This document shows, in pieces, positions 55,099 to 61,538 of a stretch of 64,000 nt of DNA; the first letter of the stretch is position 1, and each line of letters opens with the position of its first letter. The DNA is from Candidatus Marinacidobacterales bacterium (lineage in GTDB: Bacteria > Acidobacteriota > Vicinamibacteria > Marinacidobacterales > SMYC01), in assembly GCA_965224085.1 (NCBI GenBank), contig CBDCYI010000005.1, positions 1,344,001-1,408,000 of the forward strand, read 5' to 3'. The notes beneath the pieces were generated by a model that was not told the origin of the DNA, ran no database searches, and saw only the letters and a list, made by a program, of their open reading frames with translations. The position numbers and the translations under genes were made by a program.

Positions 55099-55171
55099 TT
55101 CACTAGGGGGATAGAATTTCCTTCCCGGCTCGCGAGCCTGGTCGAGCCGGCGATCCGTGGGAGGCGAACCC

Positions 55172-57625
55172 ATGTTGCGGAGATGTCTGCTTTACGTGGT
55201 CGGTTTTGGCCTGGGGCTCGCGTCGGCGAGCGGTCAAACGCTACGTTATCCAACGCTGGGCGGGCAGATCCGCGTGGAGGGTCATCTGCTGCCCGCGGTA
55301 TCGACGGGACCGCTCGACCCCAGCTGGAGCCCCGACGGCGAATGGCTCGCGTTCTCCATGCGCGGTGACATCTGGAAGCTCCCGGCGGAAGGAGGAGAGG
55401 CGGTCGCGCTGACCGAGGCGCCTGGCTATCACTTCGAGCCGGTGTGGAGCCCAGACGGATCCCGCCTGGCCCTCACGGTGGACCTCGACGGCAATCTCGA
55501 TATTGCTCTGGTGCGCGCCGAAGGGGGATCGATCGAACGATTGACGCAGGATCCGCACGTGGATATCCAGCCCGCCTGGAGCCCAGATGGACAGAGCCTT
55601 TACTTCGTCAGCGGCCGGGCAGGGAGCCTGGACATCTACCGTCTCGACCTTGCGAGCGGCGAGAAGATCCCGGTCGTGAGCGGCCAGCGACACGATATTC
55701 AGCCTTCCGTCTCGCCGGACGGGCGGCGCCTCGCCTATATCGCTCCGGTCCAGGGTCGTATGGGAAGCGGCGGCATTTGGGTCAAGCGCTTGCCGGATGG
55801 AGAGCCCGAGCTCTTGCATTACGAGGAGACTAGCTTCCGAGCGAAGCCGACCTGGACACCGAACGGTAGCGCCCTCGTCTACGTTTCGGATGCCGCCGGC
55901 TCGAACGACATTGCCGTCGTTCCCGCGAGCGGTGGCAACTACGTGCGGCTCACGGAGCATCCGATGGATGAGTACGCCCCGGTCGTGAGCCCGGATGGCT
56001 CCCGGATCGCCTTCGTCTCTAACCGAACCGGACCGACACGCCTTCACACGATGGCCGCCGGAGGGGGCGCGGGAGGGGCCTGGAGCCCGGTGCCGATCGA
56101 ATCCCGTCGCCCCCGAGTTGCGCACGGACGGCTGCGGGGCGAGGTGCGCAGAGCGGACGGAGCGGTCACGCCGGGACGGATCCTGCTTCTCGCGAGCGAC
56201 GGGCGGGCCTACGCGCCCGACGAAGGCTTTCATCGGGTGAGCTCGGTGAACGAGATCCACTATTTCCACACGCGGGACGCCTTCGAAGTGGAGCTCCCCG
56301 CCGGCGAGGTGAGCGTCGAGGTCGTGCGCGGCTTCGAGTATCAGCCACGGCCGGTTCGGGTCGACGTCCCCGTGGGAGGCACGGCCGACGTCGTGCTCAC
56401 GCTCGAGCGGCTCGTCGACGCTCCGGCGAGAGGCTGGTTCTCGGGAGACAACCACGTGCACGATCTCCACCAGGGACGATTCGGTCTCACCCAGGAGGAT
56501 TTCTTCTACCAGCTCGTCGCCGACGACCTGCACGTCGCGAATGCTCTCATCCACATGGACGGCACCAAGCTGATGGGACGGTGGAGCGATCTGACCGGGG
56601 AGCCCTTTCGGCTGTCCAATGACGATTACATTCTGTTCTACACCCAGGAGTTCAGGGGCTCCTTCGGCCACGTGGGTCTTCTGGGTGTCCAGCGTTTCAT
56701 CATGCCGCTCATCGGTGGGACGCGGGGGACACCCTACGCCGCGGACGTGTTGAAGGTTCGCTATCTCGACGAGGTGCGCTCTCAGGGTGGTATCGGGGGT
56801 TTTCTCCATCCCTATAACGGCTCGGTGGATACGCCGGAGCAGGCGGCCTCCTCCGACATCCCTCTGCACGTCGCGCTCGGCAAAGGGGATTTCTTCGACG
56901 TCGTCTGTATCGCGTCTGACGAGCTCTCGTCCGCGAAAATGTATTACCGCTTTCTGAACAGCGGCTTCCGCATTCCCGCGACCGGCGGGACGGACAATTT
57001 CAGCAACGTGTGGCGCGACCCGTCCGGCGGAACGGCCCGCACGTACGCGCACCTGGACGGAAAGCTCGGATATCGCGAGTGGCTTTCTGCCGTGAAAGCC
57101 GGGCGCACCTTCGCGACCAACGGCCCACTGCTGTTGTTCGAGGTGGAAGGGAAAGGCCCGGGTGAGGAGATCCGCTTGAAGCCGGGGGATCCCTCTGGTC
57201 TGAGCGTCAAGGCGGAGCTCGTCTCGATTGTACCAATCGACAAGCTCGAGATCCTGGTCAACGGGGAAGTCGTCGAGACCTCGCGACCGAGCGGTGACGG
57301 CACGCGCATGGAGGTTTCCGTCTCGGTCGACGTTCCGGGAAGCGGCTGGGTCGCGGCGCGGGTCATCGGGTCGAAGCACCGCTACGTGGGCGATAACTAT
57401 CCCTTCGCCCAGACCTCTCCGGTCTACGTCGAGCGCGAAGGTGCGCCCTTCGCGTCGGCCGAAGACGCCCGCTTTCTGCTCGAGGTGGTGAACGAGCTGT
57501 GGCGTCGCGTGGAGACCCGGGACGCCTGGCGCAGCGCAACCGAAAAGGAGACTTACCTTCGGGCGGTAGAGGAAGCGCGTTCGGCGTACCAGCGCGCCAT
57601 CGATATTGCAGAGGGTACCCAATAA
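55172..57625 (+). CDS. PD40/TolB-like propeller fused to a CehA/McbA-like PHP metallohydrolase
   Basis: Repeated P.WSPDG; GWFSGDNHVH, GH, HP, GGTD, ARTY and GRTFATNGP. Confidence 0.85.
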   Translation: MLRRCLLYVVGFGLGLASASGQTLRYPTLGGQIRVEGHLLPAVSTGPLDPSWSPDGEWLAFSMRGDIWKLPAEGGEAVALTEAPGYHFEPVWSPDGSRLALTVDLDGNLDIALVRAEGGSIERLTQDPHVDIQPAWSPDGQSLYFVSGRAGSLDIYRLDLASGEKIPVVSGQRHDIQPSVSPDGRRLAYIAPVQGRMGSGGIWVKRLPDGEPELLHYEETSFRAKPTWTPNGSALVYVSDAAGSNDIAVVPASGGNYVRLTEHPMDEYAPVVSPDGSRIAFVSNRTGPTRLHTMAAGGGAGGAWSPVPIESRRPRVAHGRLRGEVRRADGAVTPGRILLLASDGRAYAPDEGFHRVSSVNEIHYFHTRDAFEVELPAGEVSVEVVRGFEYQPRPVRVDVPVGGTADVVLTLERLVDAPARGWFSGDNHVHDLHQGRFGLTQEDFFYQLVADDLHVANALIHMDGTKLMGRWSDLTGEPFRLSNDDYILFYTQEFRGSFGHVGLLGVQRFIMPLIGGTRGTPYAADVLKVRYLDEVRSQGGIGGFLHPYNGSVDTPEQAASSDIPLHVALGKGDFFDVVCIASDELSSAKMYYRFLNSGFRIPATGGTDNFSNVWRDPSGGTARTYAHLDGKLGYREWLSAVKAGRTFATNGPLLLFEVEGKGPGEEIRLKPGDPSGLSVKAELVSIVPIDKLEILVNGEVVETSRPSGDGTRMEVSVSVDVPGSGWVAARVIGSKHRYVGDNYPFAQTSPVYVEREGAPFASAEDARFLLEVVNELWRRVETRDAWRSATEKETYLRAVEEARSAYQRAIDIAEGTQ

Positions 57626-57674
57626 AGCCTTGTTCGGGGTACTTTCGACTGACACTCCCGGCCGAAGGCATTTT

Positions 57675-59063
57675 TCATGATATGGATTGATCGGGAACGA
57701 GGCTGAAGCCGAGTCGGGTAGCTTTGCGTCGGAGATTACTCAGGAGGCGTTGCTGGTATTGCCTTTCATAGGCGTCCTGACCGAGCTCAATGAACTCCTC
57801 TCCAGTCGCAAGCATGCGGAAGTAGATGGTCGCTATTTTACGGGCGGTAGCTGTGATGGCCTTTGGAGCACCTCGTCGCGATCGGATTCGTCGATAGAAA
57901 GCGCCGAGCGCGGTTTGGGTATTGCGGACAGCGCACGCGGCGAGGCGAAAGAGTTTTGCAGCACGACTGGAGCTCATTGGGGTGGCCCGGCGAAAGATTC
58001 GACCAGCGGACTCCTTATTATTCGGTGCGAGAGCTAGCCATGAGGTGAAGTGCTTGTCACTTTTCCACGGGCTCATGTCGCAACCGGTTTCTCCTACGAG
58101 CTGCAGAACGGCATAGCTACCTAAGCCGGGAACCCTGGTTAGGTCCACCCCCGTGAGTCCCAATAGAGACTCAGCGAGCGGAAAGCGCGGCCCGTTGCCG
58201 CTACGCGCTCGCCGTGTCCGTGGTTTCGGCTTAGGCCGAGCGTCCTGAGGCCGGGTCTCCAATTTGGACAGGCATCTCTCGATCCGCTTGTCACAGTCTT
58301 CCATTTTCTCTTGATAGAAATCGTACAACTCCACCGACTGTTGAAGAGCGAAAACATGCTCGCTCCGATAGTTACCTTCTAAGGCTTTCGCGATCGTGGC
58401 CTCATCGTTGTGGCAACGTTCATGCCTCAGTTTTGCTAGGTCACGAGGATCTCGCTCTCCTCTCAAGATCGCTCGGATGATCGCAAGGCCGGTGACTCCG
58501 GTCACGTCGCGCAGGACGTGTTGTAGCTGGAGCCCCATTTGGTTGAGCGCTTTGTGCATATGCTGAATGTGGCGAGCCGCTGACTCCACCAGCGAGCTTC
58601 GTTGGCGGGTGTATGCCCTTAGCTCGCAAATCGCCGATTCCGGCCGAAAGGTTTTTGGGAGTAGCCCGAATGTATGCAGCTGTTGCAGCCACTCCGCATC
58701 CGACACGTCTGACTTGCGCCCAGATACGTTTTTCACTTTGCGAGCATCGACCAGATAGACTTCAAATCCCTCGTCTTCCAACAACTCGTACAGTGGAATC
58801 CAATAAACTCCGGTCGACTCCATCGCCACCGTGCACACGCCGCACGCCTTCAGCCAATTGGCCAGCTCTCGCAGCGAGCATACAAAGCTCTGAAACGTGC
58901 GGACATGTTCGCCCTCAGGAGTGCGCCCCTTCGGGACTGCCGCCACGATTGACTCCGCTCCAATATCAATCCCTGCAGCATCTAGATTTACCGTGTCGAG
59001 CTCGTGCTCCAATTTTTTCCGTCTTGCTTGACGACTGCTTTTTGTCCTGACGCGACGTGCCAT
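57675..59063 (-). CDS. IS110 family transposase/recombinase
   Basis: DEDD residues in GIDIG, AMESTGVYW and KSDVSDA; C-terminal domain with ESAG serine and KAITATARK. Confidence 0.96.
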   Translation of the reverse strand: MARRVRTKSSRQARRKKLEHELDTVNLDAAGIDIGAESIVAAVPKGRTPEGEHVRTFQSFVCSLRELANWLKACGVCTVAMESTGVYWIPLYELLEDEGFEVYLVDARKVKNVSGRKSDVSDAEWLQQLHTFGLLPKTFRPESAICELRAYTRQRSSLVESAARHIQHMHKALNQMGLQLQHVLRDVTGVTGLAIIRAILRGERDPRDLAKLRHERCHNDEATIAKALEGNYRSEHVFALQQSVELYDFYQEKMEDCDKRIERCLSKLETRPQDARPKPKPRTRRARSGNGPRFPLAESLLGLTGVDLTRVPGLGSYAVLQLVGETGCDMSPWKSDKHFTSWLALAPNNKESAGRIFRRATPMSSSRAAKLFRLAACAVRNTQTALGAFYRRIRSRRGAPKAITATARKIATIYFRMLATGEEFIELGQDAYERQYQQRLLSNLRRKATRLGFSLVPDQSIS

Positions 59064-59094
59064 TTCTCGCTCCTTTCGGCGCAACCAGGAGAGA

Positions 59095-59290
59095 GGGGCG
59101 ATTCAAAACATTCTTTCGAACGGGGTCATGCCTCGCGACATGCCACCACGGATACTCCCGCTAACCCTCCAGACCTTGCTGTCAAACGGGCACTGAGCAC
59201 CATCGTACCTTCGGCCTTGACTCCCGGCTGCACTCGATCGGAGTCTACTTCCTCCCACAGATCTCAAAGGGTCAGTCTCCGATTACCTTC
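59095..59290 (-). ncRNA. Candidate IS110 bridge RNA (ends approximate)
   Basis: Two guide-TGGTG-hairpin-CCCGTT-guide modules; the guides match the insertion target and one element end. Confidence 0.75.
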
Positions 59291-59348
59291 GCCCGCCCGG
59301 GCGATGCCATTGCTGTCAAATTGAGCTGGTGACTGACAGAATGGTCCA

Positions 59349-60053
59349 ATGAAGACCGATGCGCCAAGCTACCACGGCTATCGATTTCCACCGGAAATCA
59401 TCAGCCACGCCGTCTGGCTCTACCACCGATTCTGCGTGAGCTTTCGAAACGTCGAAGAGCTGCTTGCTCAGCGAGGCATCACGGTTTCCTACGAAGCGAT
59501 CCGACTTTGGTGCATCAAGTTCGGGCCGGAATACGCTCGGCGACTGAAGCGTCGGCAGGGTCGCCTTGGTGACACGTGGCTCCTGGACGAGGTCTTCATA
59601 AAGATACAAGGCGAACGCCAATACCTCTGGCGCGCGGTAGACCAAGATGGTGATGTGATTGATATCCTCGTCCAGCCTCGCCGTGATCAGAAAGCCGCCA
59701 AACGATTCTTCCGCAAGCTGTTGAAAGGGCAAGGCCGTCCGCCCTGGCAGCTGGTCACCGACAAACTGAGAAGCTACAGCGCCGCTCACCGCGAGGTCAT
59801 GCCGTCCGTCGTCCACGACACTGACCAGTACAGAAACAACCTAGCCGAAGTCTCGCACGAACCGACGCGACAACGGGAACGACAGATGCGGAAGTTTAAA
59901 ACTCCTGGGCAGGCGCAACGATTCTTGACCGTGCATGGACTCGTGCAAAACCTCTTTCGCGTCGGACGGCATTTGTTGCAAGCGCATCATCATCGGGAGC
60001 TACGAGACCGCGCTTTCATCGTCTGGCAGGAGGTAACCTGTGCCGTCCGATGA
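59349..60053 (+). CDS. IS6 family DDE transposase
   Basis: YRFPPEII..AVWLY, LDEVFIKI, YLWRAVDQDG, VTDKL and NN.AE.SH. Confidence 0.96.
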   Translation: MKTDAPSYHGYRFPPEIISHAVWLYHRFCVSFRNVEELLAQRGITVSYEAIRLWCIKFGPEYARRLKRRQGRLGDTWLLDEVFIKIQGERQYLWRAVDQDGDVIDILVQPRRDQKAAKRFFRKLLKGQGRPPWQLVTDKLRSYSAAHREVMPSVVHDTDQYRNNLAEVSHEPTRQRERQMRKFKTPGQAQRFLTVHGLVQNLFRVGRHLLQAHHHRELRDRAFIVWQEVTCAVR

Positions 60054-60185
60054 GAGCAAAGGAAATCAGCTCGACGCAATAGGTTCGCTCGCTCAACGTC
60101 AACTTGACAATACCTGCGATAGCGCGATTTTCGAACTGCCCGGCGCGCGCCGTGATGAATAAAGGGAAGGGACGGGGAGAACACC

Positions 60186-61538
60186 CTACTCGGCGAGGTC
60201 GCGAAGCGTTTCGCGAACGGTCTCGAGGCCGAAGGTCTTTCCCAACGGCATGTCCGCGATCGTCGTCATCACGGACGCCGCCAAGTCGGCCTGGTCGTAC
60301 GGGGGTGGGTCCACGAGTTTGCCGTCGCGCCGAGCAGCCGCGACCTGTTCGAGAAATGCCAGATAGGCGTCCGCTTCGTCTTCGAGCTTGTATTGGGACT
60401 CGACGTGCTCGCGGGCGAAGCGGCCCATCGCGTGTCGAAGCTGCGGCTTCTCGTAGAACAGCTGGAGCGTCCGCGCGATCGCCTCGACTTCGGGGGGGCC
60501 GAGATCGATGCGAGCCACGGTGTGCTCGGGAAATTCGACGAACGGGCCCGTGTTCGAGACGAGGACGGGCTTTCCCATGCCGAGCGTCCGGATGAGCGTC
60601 CCCGACAGCTCGCCCGTCGACGGAAAGCGGAGGTTCACGACGACGTCGCAGGCCAAGATGTACAGATAGAACTTATCCATGGGCTGGCGGCCCGTGAGGA
60701 CGAGCTTGTCGCGGAAAGCTGCGGTGTCGGCGATCGTTTCTAGGTCGTAGCTGCTTTGCACTTCGCCGACGACGAGAAAACGCGCATCGGCACCCGTCTC
60801 CAAGAATCGCTTGAAGCCTAAGAGAGCGCGGTCGATGCGCTTCGAGCGCGCCGCGAGTCCGAAGGCCGCGACCAGGAACGCGTCGTCTGGAAGGCCGAGC
60901 ATGCGTCGCGCTTCCAAAGGGGTGTTGACCGGAAGTGGCGGTGGCGGGGCGTAGTGATGTGGGGCGCGGCCGATGAACTTTCCCACCGGTACCGAGCCGA
61001 AACGCTCTTCCAGCCAGCGCTGCATGAATCTCGTCAGGACCAAAACTCCGTAGCTGCGCTCGACCATCCGCTCGCAAAGGGGAAACTTCGACGTCAGGAG
61101 GTCGCTCCCGAGCGCGGCGGCGATCTGACGGCCGAGCGCGGCGCCTCGTTCGCCATAGGCGCGCTTCATCTCGGATACATAGAGCGCCGCGTCCCCGCGC
61201 TCGACCGACAAGCCGAGAAACAAGTGCTGGAGCACCAGGTCATGAAGCACGACCACACCCGGAAAGCGCAGCGCGGCGTTCAGCGCGTAGCGATGAAACG
61301 CGCTATTGCCGATTTGATAGAGATTGAGGTCAAACGCCTCGCGCGCGGCCACCTCTTCGTACTCGCGCGCATAGTGCCACTCGAAGCTCTCTAGGATTTC
61401 GGGGTTGTCAGGCTCGTAGTCTTCGACGAACAAGTGAATGTCGGCGCCGCCGTTCTGGAGGTACGGAAGAAGCTCCTCGCTATAGTCGGCGATGCCCGTC
61501 CCTTTCGGAGAGAGCGGACTCCAGAAGGCGAGCTTCAT
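60186..61538 (-). CDS. Glycosyltransferase family 4 protein
   Basis: SPLSP..TGIADYS, YQIGNS.FH, VVLHD and NLRFPSTGELSG. Confidence 0.9.
   Translation of the reverse strand: MKLAFWSPLSPKGTGIADYSEELLPYLQNGGADIHLFVEDYEPDNPEILESFEWHYAREYEEVAAREAFDLNLYQIGNSAFHRYALNAALRFPGVVVLHDLVLQHLFLGLSVERGDAALYVSEMKRAYGERGAALGRQIAAALGSDLLTSKFPLCERMVERSYGVLVLTRFMQRWLEERFGSVPVGKFIGRAPHHYAPPPPLPVNTPLEARRMLGLPDDAFLVAAFGLAARSKRIDRALLGFKRFLETGADARFLVVGEVQSSYDLETIADTAAFRDKLVLTGRQPMDKFYLYILACDVVVNLRFPSTGELSGTLIRTLGMGKPVLVSNTGPFVEFPEHTVARIDLGPPEVEAIARTLQLFYEKPQLRHAMGRFAREHVESQYKLEDEADAYLAFLEQVAAARRDGKLVDPPPYDQADLAASVMTTIADMPLGKTFGLETVRETLRDLAE

Follow-up and report, generated by a model that had tools for sequence, protein, structure and literature searches.

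The 64,000-nt stretch of contig CBDCYI010000005.1 analysed here (hereafter, the window; positions 1,344,001 to 1,408,000, assembly GCA_965224085.1, a Candidatus Marinacidobacterales bacterium) contains an IS110-family insertion sequence (IS), designated IS110-1, that lies within the terminal inverted repeat of an IS6-family element, and the locus raises the question of what directs one mobile element to the very end of another. We consider it very probable that IS110-1 is an active-looking element that encodes its own bridge-type guide RNA, programmed to match the left terminal repeat of the IS6 element. This reading is based on the boundaries of the element, the invariance of its target in two genomes, the sparing of repeats that have TT in place of the CT core, the two-loop structure of the RNA region and the match between a loop octamer and the element junctions. 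All genome-wide counts given below refer to the genome that holds the window (G000; 6.87 Mb in 12 contigs). It was compared with 40 further genomes of relatives, with 53 loci of distant homologues from several phyla (transposases 39–59% identical) plus one partial copy of 100% identity, and with 24 public sequencing runs, all as assembled contigs, four of which were compared with positions 56600–60400 of the window; no claim is based on one unpublished genome (G027). The element's own orientation corresponds to the minus strand of the window, and the frame used for the IS110-family element IS621 corresponds to the plus strand.

Structure of the interrupted IS6 element

On the plus strand, GGTA (57638–57641) and CT (57642–57643) precede the start of IS110-1, TTCGAC, at 57644; the context around 57638–57649 reads ...TTGTTCGG-GGTA-CT/TTCGACTGAC..., where the slash marks the boundary. 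At the other junction (59306–59324), the element ends with GCCATTG at 59312 and is followed by a second CT (59313–59314) and GTCAAATTGA. IS110-1 (57644–59312, 1669 bp), whose transposase gene and non-coding RNA region are both on the minus strand, separates the outer 6 bp of the split left repeat (57638–57643, plus strand; GGTA and one copy of the CT core) from the remaining 802 bp of the IS6-family element (59313–60114, plus strand), which start with the second CT, followed by the 10 inner bases of the left repeat. Deletion of IS110-1 together with one CT yields a 16-bp left repeat, GGTACTGTCAAATTGA, with 14/16 identity to the right repeat, GGTATTGTCAAGTTGA (60099–60114, minus strand), in which TT replaces the CT core of the left repeat; the same deletion yields an IS6 element of 4 + 802 = 806 bp. 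The tips of IS110-1 (TTCGAC... and ...GCCATTG) are not inverted repeats of one another, and the duplication consists of CT only, the adjoining bases being different. The coordinates, CT junctions, 14/16 match and 806-bp IS6 of the original prediction thus proved correct to the base.

The transposase gene of IS110-1 (57675–59063, minus strand) encodes 462 aa from an ATG at 59063, with AAGGAG located 7 nt upstream; the open frame extends to a TTG at 59084, which would give 469 aa. The product matched the Pfam domains DEDD_Tnp_IS110 (PF01548; E = 5.8e-25, 88.3 bits with a cut-off of 29, model positions 1–153 of 155) and Transposase_20 (PF02371; 34.7 bits with a cut-off of 21.3). Its only match in PDB was the IS621 transposase, a weak one (E = 1.2e-5), in which the GID aspartate, the glutamate in ME(S/A)TG and the serine in (K/Y)ES are aligned and the last two acidic residues fall outside the aligned part. 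The distance from the element end at 59312 to the ATG at 59063 is 249 nt, compared with 31 nt beyond the stop codon, placing the non-coding region upstream of the transposase gene. IS110-1 was assigned to the IS110 family on its DEDD domains, the lack of terminal inverted repeats, the 2-bp core as sole duplication and an invariant, sequence-specific target. The host element was assigned to the IS6 family on its size (approximately 0.8 kb), its short terminal repeats and its single IS240/IS26-type DDE transposase, an intact protein of 234 aa (59349–60053, plus strand; Pfam DDE_Tnp_IS240, E = 8.4e-37).

Target specificity across copies and genomes

Seven full-length copies of IS110-1 (at least 99.88% identity) and several fragments were identified in G000, and the boundaries are identical in every copy. 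GGTACT precedes all 12 left ends and CTGTCAA follows all 10 right ends; when the 64-bp miniature copies described below (minis) are included, these flanks are found at 34 left ends and at 30 of 30 right ends. The right-hand contexts of IS110-1 diverge after approximately 12 bp, leading into full IS6 copies (three times), IS6 fragments, other IS6 relatives or solo repeats, so that only the repeat is common to the insertions. Across the genome, 34 sites of the type GGTACTGTCAA are occupied and 10 are empty, whereas none of the 45 sites of the right-repeat type, GGTATTGTCAA, carries IS110-1 or a mini, and no TT-core junction was found in G000. The two repeat types therefore form a built-in control for the core, with approximately 44 CT sites 77% occupied and 45 TT sites untouched. 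The exact right repeat GGTATTGTCAAGTTGA is present in 35 copies and the exact 16-mer GGTACTGTCAAATTGA in seven, the latter showing that uninterrupted left ends of IS6 exist. The association of IS110-1 with the IS6 left repeat is far beyond chance and is a true target specificity.

Empty IS6 copies are indeed present in G000, where 10 full copies have an uninterrupted left repeat. The case that would speak against an insertion into the repeat, namely uninterrupted IS6 copies that begin with ATTGCTGTC, does not arise: the 13 copies that begin ...ATTG/CTGTC with no full IS110-1 are preceded by a mini (64 bp, once 51 bp), on the far side of which GGTACT is found.

The same target is used in other genomes. 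G021, which belongs to another family of the same order, contains six IS110-1 copies with 100% identity, and all four loci examined (L038, L049, L058 and L062) have the flanks (G/T)GTACT and CTGTCAA[A/G]TT; in two genomes of the same genus as G000, the left ends of partial copies follow GGTACT. The 100% identity across families suggests a recent horizontal transfer. With the same flanks at every IS110-1 end in G000 and at 4/4 G021 loci, the precise insertion of an IS110 element into an IS6 terminal repeat, as originally predicted, is well established. The multi-copy groups L073 and L081, like the loci L080, L087 and L088 with similar guides, reside at repeats of the TGTCATCCTGAG type.

A bridge-RNA-like region with readable guides

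The non-coding end of IS110-1 contains a bridge-RNA-like region (59090–59246, minus strand) with two pseudo-symmetric internal loops, putatively target- and donor-binding, which were recognized in a covariation alignment (A1). RNAalifold analysis of its 11 sequences, the alignable non-coding regions among the distant loci, produced 23 consensus pairs, 12 of which have compensatory changes, and each of the two similar modules has a base stem and a top stem-loop, separated by one loop strand on the 5' side and another on the 3' side. In the target loop, the 5' guide GGUAC (59205–59209, minus strand) reads in the same sense as the GGTAC in the IS6 repeat and corresponds to the left target guide (LTG) of IS621, and the 3' guide UUUGACAG followed by CA (59177–59186, minus strand), corresponding to the right target guide (RTG), is the complement of CT-GTCAAA. 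In the numbering of the 249-nt end, GGTAC (nt 104–108) and TTTGACAG (nt 127–134) jointly spell GGTAC(T)GTCAAA. The CA that follows the 3' guide is the complement of the TG that ends IS110-1 (...CATTG) and occupies the handshake position. In the donor loop, the 3' guide UCGAAAG (59113–59119, minus strand; TCGAAAG, nt 194–200) is the complement of CT-TTCGA and thus represents the transposase-distal end of IS110-1 (TCGAA on the minus strand) together with the core.

At these loop positions, relatives with transposases of 40–53% identity carry other octamers, and comparison with their junctions indicates that the segments vary with the elements that carry them. The 3' strand of the first module is composed of a hypervariable hexamer, an invariant AG and two further bases, with 15 distinct octamers among 18 instances. 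The octamer was found at the boundary of its own element, 118–157 nt upstream, as an exact match in 5/18 cases and with at most one mismatch in 9/18, as against 0/256 and 3/256, respectively, in cross-locus controls. In lineages with such a match, the two bases after the octamer are the first two bases of the element, except for one of the two in L112. In L073, the 5' position of the target loop is GCUGC, the complement of GCAGC, which is present in two of six right flanks of L073 copies. The 3' strand of the donor loop likewise reads TCGAA-AG in IS110-1, TGAGG-AG in L073 and TCGGG-AG in L081, the corresponding element ends being ...TCGAA, ...TGAGG and ...TTGGG. None of the retrieved relatives was found to carry the IS6 guide; the specificity for IS6 thus reflects a reprogramming specific to IS110-1.

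The element also carries a pair of sub-terminal repeats. GACTGAC (57647–57653, plus strand) lies 3 nt from the transposase-distal end and is complementary to 59271–59277 (minus strand; GACUGAC in the element's orientation), which lies 35 nt from the other end and is preceded by a GC hairpin (59289–59303). This pair covaries, with ATGAACAG/CTGTTCAT in L081, ATGAAC/GTTCAT in L073 and GAGTGA/TCACTC in the 64-bp mini. The clade combines a non-coding region upstream of the transposase gene with covarying sub-terminal repeats of 6–8 bp, located 35 nt and 3–5 nt from the tips beside a conserved terminal hairpin.

A second IS110 element on the same repeat

A second IS110 element, whose transposase is 33% identical to that of IS110-1, was identified in G000 by tblastn. 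It is approximately 1.48 kb long and present in eight full or nearly full copies, together with approximately 13 copies of a miniature of approximately 143 bp (approximately 75 bp of one end and 70 bp of the other; e.g. C4:29374–29516). One such miniature is located in tandem directly behind a full copy. The junctions, ...TATTGTCA-AG/TT...TTATT-AG/TTGAC..., indicate that the element inserts at AG(TT) of GGTATTGTCA-AG-TTGA, i.e. into the right-repeat form and eight bases further in than IS110-1. In its non-coding end, CCCG-TTGTCA-AG-TT (TTGTCAAGTT) occupies a loop and motif context identical to that of the IS110-1 guide. In the IS621 frame, its core is also a CT, which belongs to the other strand of the repeat (TCAA-CT-TGACAATACC). 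This CT is missing from the left repeat (AATT rather than AGTT), as the core of IS110-1 is from the right repeat (TT rather than CT); the two positions at which the repeats differ are therefore the first core base of each parasite.

The second element was found in a bona fide IS6 right repeat only once (C4:169777–171267; L037:2289–3779), in an IS6 copy that also has a 64-bp mini at its left end, and its other copies are in repeat-like sequences of other elements. At four places (C9:13661–15222, C9:19331–20705, C4:1208494–1208712 and C11:683579–683797), one 16-bp repeat contains, nested together, a 64-bp mini and either the second element or its miniature, in the order GGTACT[mini]CTGTCAAG[TT...].

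Proposed mechanism and alternatives

By analogy with IS621, the RNA of IS110-1 would be made and act as a guide. Its target loop, with GGUAC on the 5' side and UUUGACAG on the 3' side, would read GGTA-CT-GTCAAA, with CT as the crossover core, and the joined ends of the element (...GCCATTG-CT-TTCGA...), a presumed intermediate, would recombine with the target to leave the element between two copies of CT and the repeat split after base 6. A target of this kind belongs to a mobile element with many copies, so that fresh and harmless landing sites would arise with every new copy of IS6 and would also be offered by solo or variant repeats of the left type; the right repeat would be spared because TT replaces CT.

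Several observations weigh against this interpretation. Three of the four guides were identified in IS110-1; the 5' guide of the donor loop, expected to resemble GCCAUUGCU, was found neither by k-mer search nor in the alignment, and a conserved motif makes up most of the 5' strand of that loop. The guides of 9 of the 18 relatives were not located at a junction, and the 5' target guide of L081 fits its target poorly. No Rfam family matched positions 57400–60300 (E up to 1), and a sigma-70 promoter scan of 57500–59500 returned no sites, as did a terminator scan; an outward-facing TTGACA of the IS6 repeat adjoins the RNA-coding end of IS110-1, with no -10 element at a suitable spacing by eye. Contigs from an RNA library cover 59051–59246 and 57668–58238, but the same library also covers the neighbouring gene and IS6, and this coverage is therefore no demonstration of transcription. 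Neither a circle junction nor an empty-site joint was found over 56600–60400 in the four public-run contig sets, which, being assembled contigs, are no evidence either way. Furthermore, the RNA and transposase genes of IS110-1 are on the opposite (bottom) strand of the target/donor frame, so that the analogy with IS621 is not one-to-one. For IS621, location of both on the top strand is implied by the phrases 'right end-left end junction' and 'bRNA (bridge RNA) from the left end' in the published passages available to us.

The absence of a fourth guide would also fit a different explanation, in which the transposase chooses the target directly, by structure or sequence, and the RNA matches are incidental; the conserved hairpins and the sub-terminal repeats of 7–8 bp could then be protein sites. 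We regard this as very unlikely, given that 15 distinct octamers are found at one aligned loop position and match their own junctions in 9/18 cases against 3/256 in the controls, and that two unrelated IS110 elements of G000 each carry a segment that spells their own part of the repeat. A still smaller probability, close to nil, is given to the reverse association, in which IS6 inserts beside IS110 ends or IS110 and IS6 move as one composite. IS110-1 does adjoin IS6 in the window and at two other full IS6 copies, but the outer six bases of the IS6 repeat are on the far side of IS110-1 at all 12 left ends, ten IS6 copies have no insert, and most IS110-1 copies are beside just 12–16 bp of the repeat, followed by unrelated sequence. 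A composite unit and an IS6 inserted beside IS110 are contradicted by the split repeat and the varied right-hand contexts.

Miniature copies

The 64-bp mini, of which 19 complete and 2 truncated copies were found, is inserted at the same CT as IS110-1. It starts with TTCGAGTGAAC and ends with GGTGCCATTG, its last eight and first five bases being those of IS110-1, and its right-hand part is, judged by eye, loosely similar to the RNA-coding end of IS110-1. The mini comprises approximately 43 nt of one end (left end, LE: tip, GC hairpin and sub-terminal repeat) and approximately 10 nt of the other (right end, RE). It retains the terminal GC hairpin and the complementary pair GAGTGA/TCACTC, a compensating change relative to GACTGAC/GTCAGTC of IS110-1, and folds as two hairpins with z-scores of -3.2 and -4.3. 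The minis, the conserved hairpin and the sub-terminal repeat point to the cis needs of the donor ends. No full-length parent with the ends of the mini was found in G000, and no such junction was present in the 15 relatives' loci checked. The composite of mini and surrounding repeat, with 94–100% identity, was found in eight further genomes, from relatives belonging to seven genera and two families, including G010 and G012, in which full IS110-1 was not found. At the loci of these two genomes, 25 of the 26 scorable IS6 left ends are empty and one is unclassified, so that the minis there sit elsewhere.

The minis may be moved in trans, by analogy with other IS110-family systems. Alternatively, the mini would itself be immobile and a passenger of an IS6 element that still transposes, the outer GGTACT serving as the tip. 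In favour of this, the mini is found in 11 full IS6 copies, each at its own locus, and G010 and G012 contain the composite, with no full IS110-1 found in either; a double-stranded circle of 66 bp would, moreover, be physically awkward. This passenger model is nevertheless unlikely in our view. Each of three sequence variants of the mini is found over differing IS6 haplotypes, among them two lineages that share only 97% identity with the others, and one IS6 haplotype occurs in four states (empty, with the 64-bp mini, with the 51-bp mini and with full IS110-1). In addition, 6/19 complete minis reside in repeats that do not lead into this IS6, and IS6 left ends in G010 and G012 are empty in 25/26 cases. 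The spread of the variants, the four-state haplotype and the non-IS6 contexts thus favour independent movement of the mini over hitch-hiking, as far as can be judged from the distribution of copies.

A more far-reaching proposal is possible but doubtful. The mini might be a self-standing, trans-mobilized bridge-RNA miniature that uses a route without a double-stranded circle, the IS6 ends might be a landing pad of two competing lineages and their miniatures, and the two differences between left and right repeats might decide which parasite each end admits. If the mini is self-standing, the implausibility of a 66-bp double-stranded circle and the spread to at least five sequence contexts and at least eight genomes would imply a circle-free route. 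A 2025 preprint proposes, in its abstract, a single-strand 'direct transfer' pathway, which is a candidate for such a route; transfer without circles would ease the problem of the 66-bp circle. If this proposal is true, the mini would provide a natural definition of the minimal cis-acting donor.

Host IS6 copies and the effect of insertion

Among the 24 full-length IS6 copies, the 10 uninterrupted left repeats comprise six GGTACTGTCAA, one GGTACTGTAAA and three GGTATTG. The other 14 copies are all interrupted at the same CT, two by IS110-1, eleven by a 64-bp insert and one by a 51-bp insert, and each is at a different locus. Such a distribution fits either a rapid colonization of fresh copies or a continued mobility of interrupted ones. 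An 8-bp target-site duplication was found at none of the 23 IS6 copies with both flanks in G000 and at none of 24 such copies in G010 and G012 (loci L129–L157). Since no class of IS6 copy has a duplication, the two alternatives are not decided. In IS26, intramolecular replicative events leave no direct duplication, and the missing 8-bp duplication therefore does not exclude membership of the IS6 family. One cross-copy 8-mer pair, CTGCAGTC, was found among 47 IS6 flanks (approximately 0.03 expected by chance), at the left of C5:914561 and the right of C5:946277, i.e. at inverted IS6 copies 31 kb apart; this single case suggests an intramolecular inversion event.

Copy-in transposition of IS26 needs both ends, whereas its conservative targeted route can use one. 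A partial rather than full disablement of IS6 copies with a split repeat is therefore plausible by analogy, as opposed to the immobilization originally suggested. If the interrupted copies were truly dead, IS110 elements of this type would be a natural brake on IS6 expansion. One IS6 left repeat (C4:1695373, minus strand) reads GGTACTTTCGAATTGA, two bases off the normal sequence, and recreates the TTCGA that starts IS110-1 and the mini, which may reflect either a deletion footprint or two point changes.

Comparison with known systems

The natural target of IS621 is a repetitive extragenic palindromic (REP) sequence, whereas that of IS110-1 is a transposon end. According to the passages of the IS621 reports available to us, the two elements share a DEDD-type transposase with a non-coding region upstream of its gene, two pseudo-symmetric loops, a 5' guide in the sense of the target DNA and a 3' guide complementary to the core and right half that is followed by a partner-matching dinucleotide (PMC11208160; PMC11208158). 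The same passages describe a CT core in the IS621 frame with no duplication beyond the 2-bp core, as in IS110-1, and the dinucleotide after the IS110-1 guide takes the place of the IS621 handshake guide. The differences include the length of the transposase, 462 aa in IS110-1 versus 326 aa as stated for IS621 in the available passages of a survey preprint. In the orientation of IS110-1 itself, the core is AG, and it is the upstream flank to which the long guide corresponds. IS110-1 further differs in its terminal GC hairpin and its 7–8-bp sub-terminal repeats, which lie asymmetrically, 35 nt from one tip but 3 nt from the other, and in that one donor guide was not identified. Sub-terminal inverted repeats of 7–17 bp are described for the IS1111 group in the excerpts available; IS110-1 has a covarying pair of 7 bp, but with the asymmetric placement just given and a non-coding region on the side typical of the IS110 group.

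The targeting of transposon ends by members of this family has precedents. IS4321 and IS5075 reportedly target the terminal repeats of Tn21-family transposons. Like IS110-1, they are IS110/IS1111-family elements that use another transposon's terminal inverted repeat in one orientation and at one position, whereas, as far as the sources available describe them, they belong to the IS1111 group, have a downstream non-coding region and use a Tn3-family host rather than IS6; no report of miniature derivatives was met in the parts of the literature covered. The inverted repeats of IS1384 are said to be the specific integration target of IS1383. This is, judged by the title of the report, the closest precedent, an IS110-family element on the inverted repeat of another IS in the same genome, although the host IS and the bacterial group are different. 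The original prediction named no described IS110 element that targets IS6 ends; the kind of behaviour is known beyond the examples it cited, as IS1383 on IS1384 illustrates (by title). The IS6-family end as a target appears to be the new part: no report of it was found in a full-text literature search or in the available passages of the survey preprint, although IS6-type repeats may already be listed as natural targets in the supplementary tables of Durrant 2024 and Siddiquee 2024.

A short non-autonomous derivative of an IS110-family element, MITEPpu9/ssr9 of ISPpu9, is present in several copies and is reported to excise as minicircles, and movement in trans has been proposed for it in the parts of the report available (PMC12288879). 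Similar to the 64-bp mini, it carries the end regions of its IS110-family element (PMC12288879); as described there, it has a small-RNA gene, whereas the minis of 64 bp and approximately 143 bp found here apparently consist of just end sequences and two hairpins. The host resembles IS6/IS26 elements in its length of 806 bp, its one 234-aa DDE_Tnp_IS240 transposase and its 16-bp terminal repeats starting with GG, and differs in that its scored copies lack the 8-bp target duplication.

The less ordinary features of the present system are a readable guide–target match with a CT/TT control, the convergent targeting of one repeat by two lineages and the very small size of the miniatures. Because the target is known and present in many copies, so that the guide segments are directly readable against it, IS110-1 is a clean natural example of bridge-RNA target programming. 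The short list of IS110 elements that live on transposon ends now extends to the IS6 family, members of which (IS26 type) drive much gene movement elsewhere.

Surroundings of the locus

The IS6 element of the window is located between two convergent genes. The upstream gene (55157–57625) encodes an 822-aa protein with PD40/beta-propeller repeats, and its stop codon is 12 bp from the IS6 repeat; the downstream gene (60186–61538, minus strand) encodes a group-1 glycosyltransferase. Contigs from public runs (X1 and X7) follow the left flank of the window to 57639 and then continue into sequence unlike both the window and the right flank, and another arrangement of this IS6 border therefore exists in those samples. 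An unrelated repeat of approximately 197 bp, with 98–100% identity, was found at C4:27639–27835 and approximately 30 other places, on all large contigs.

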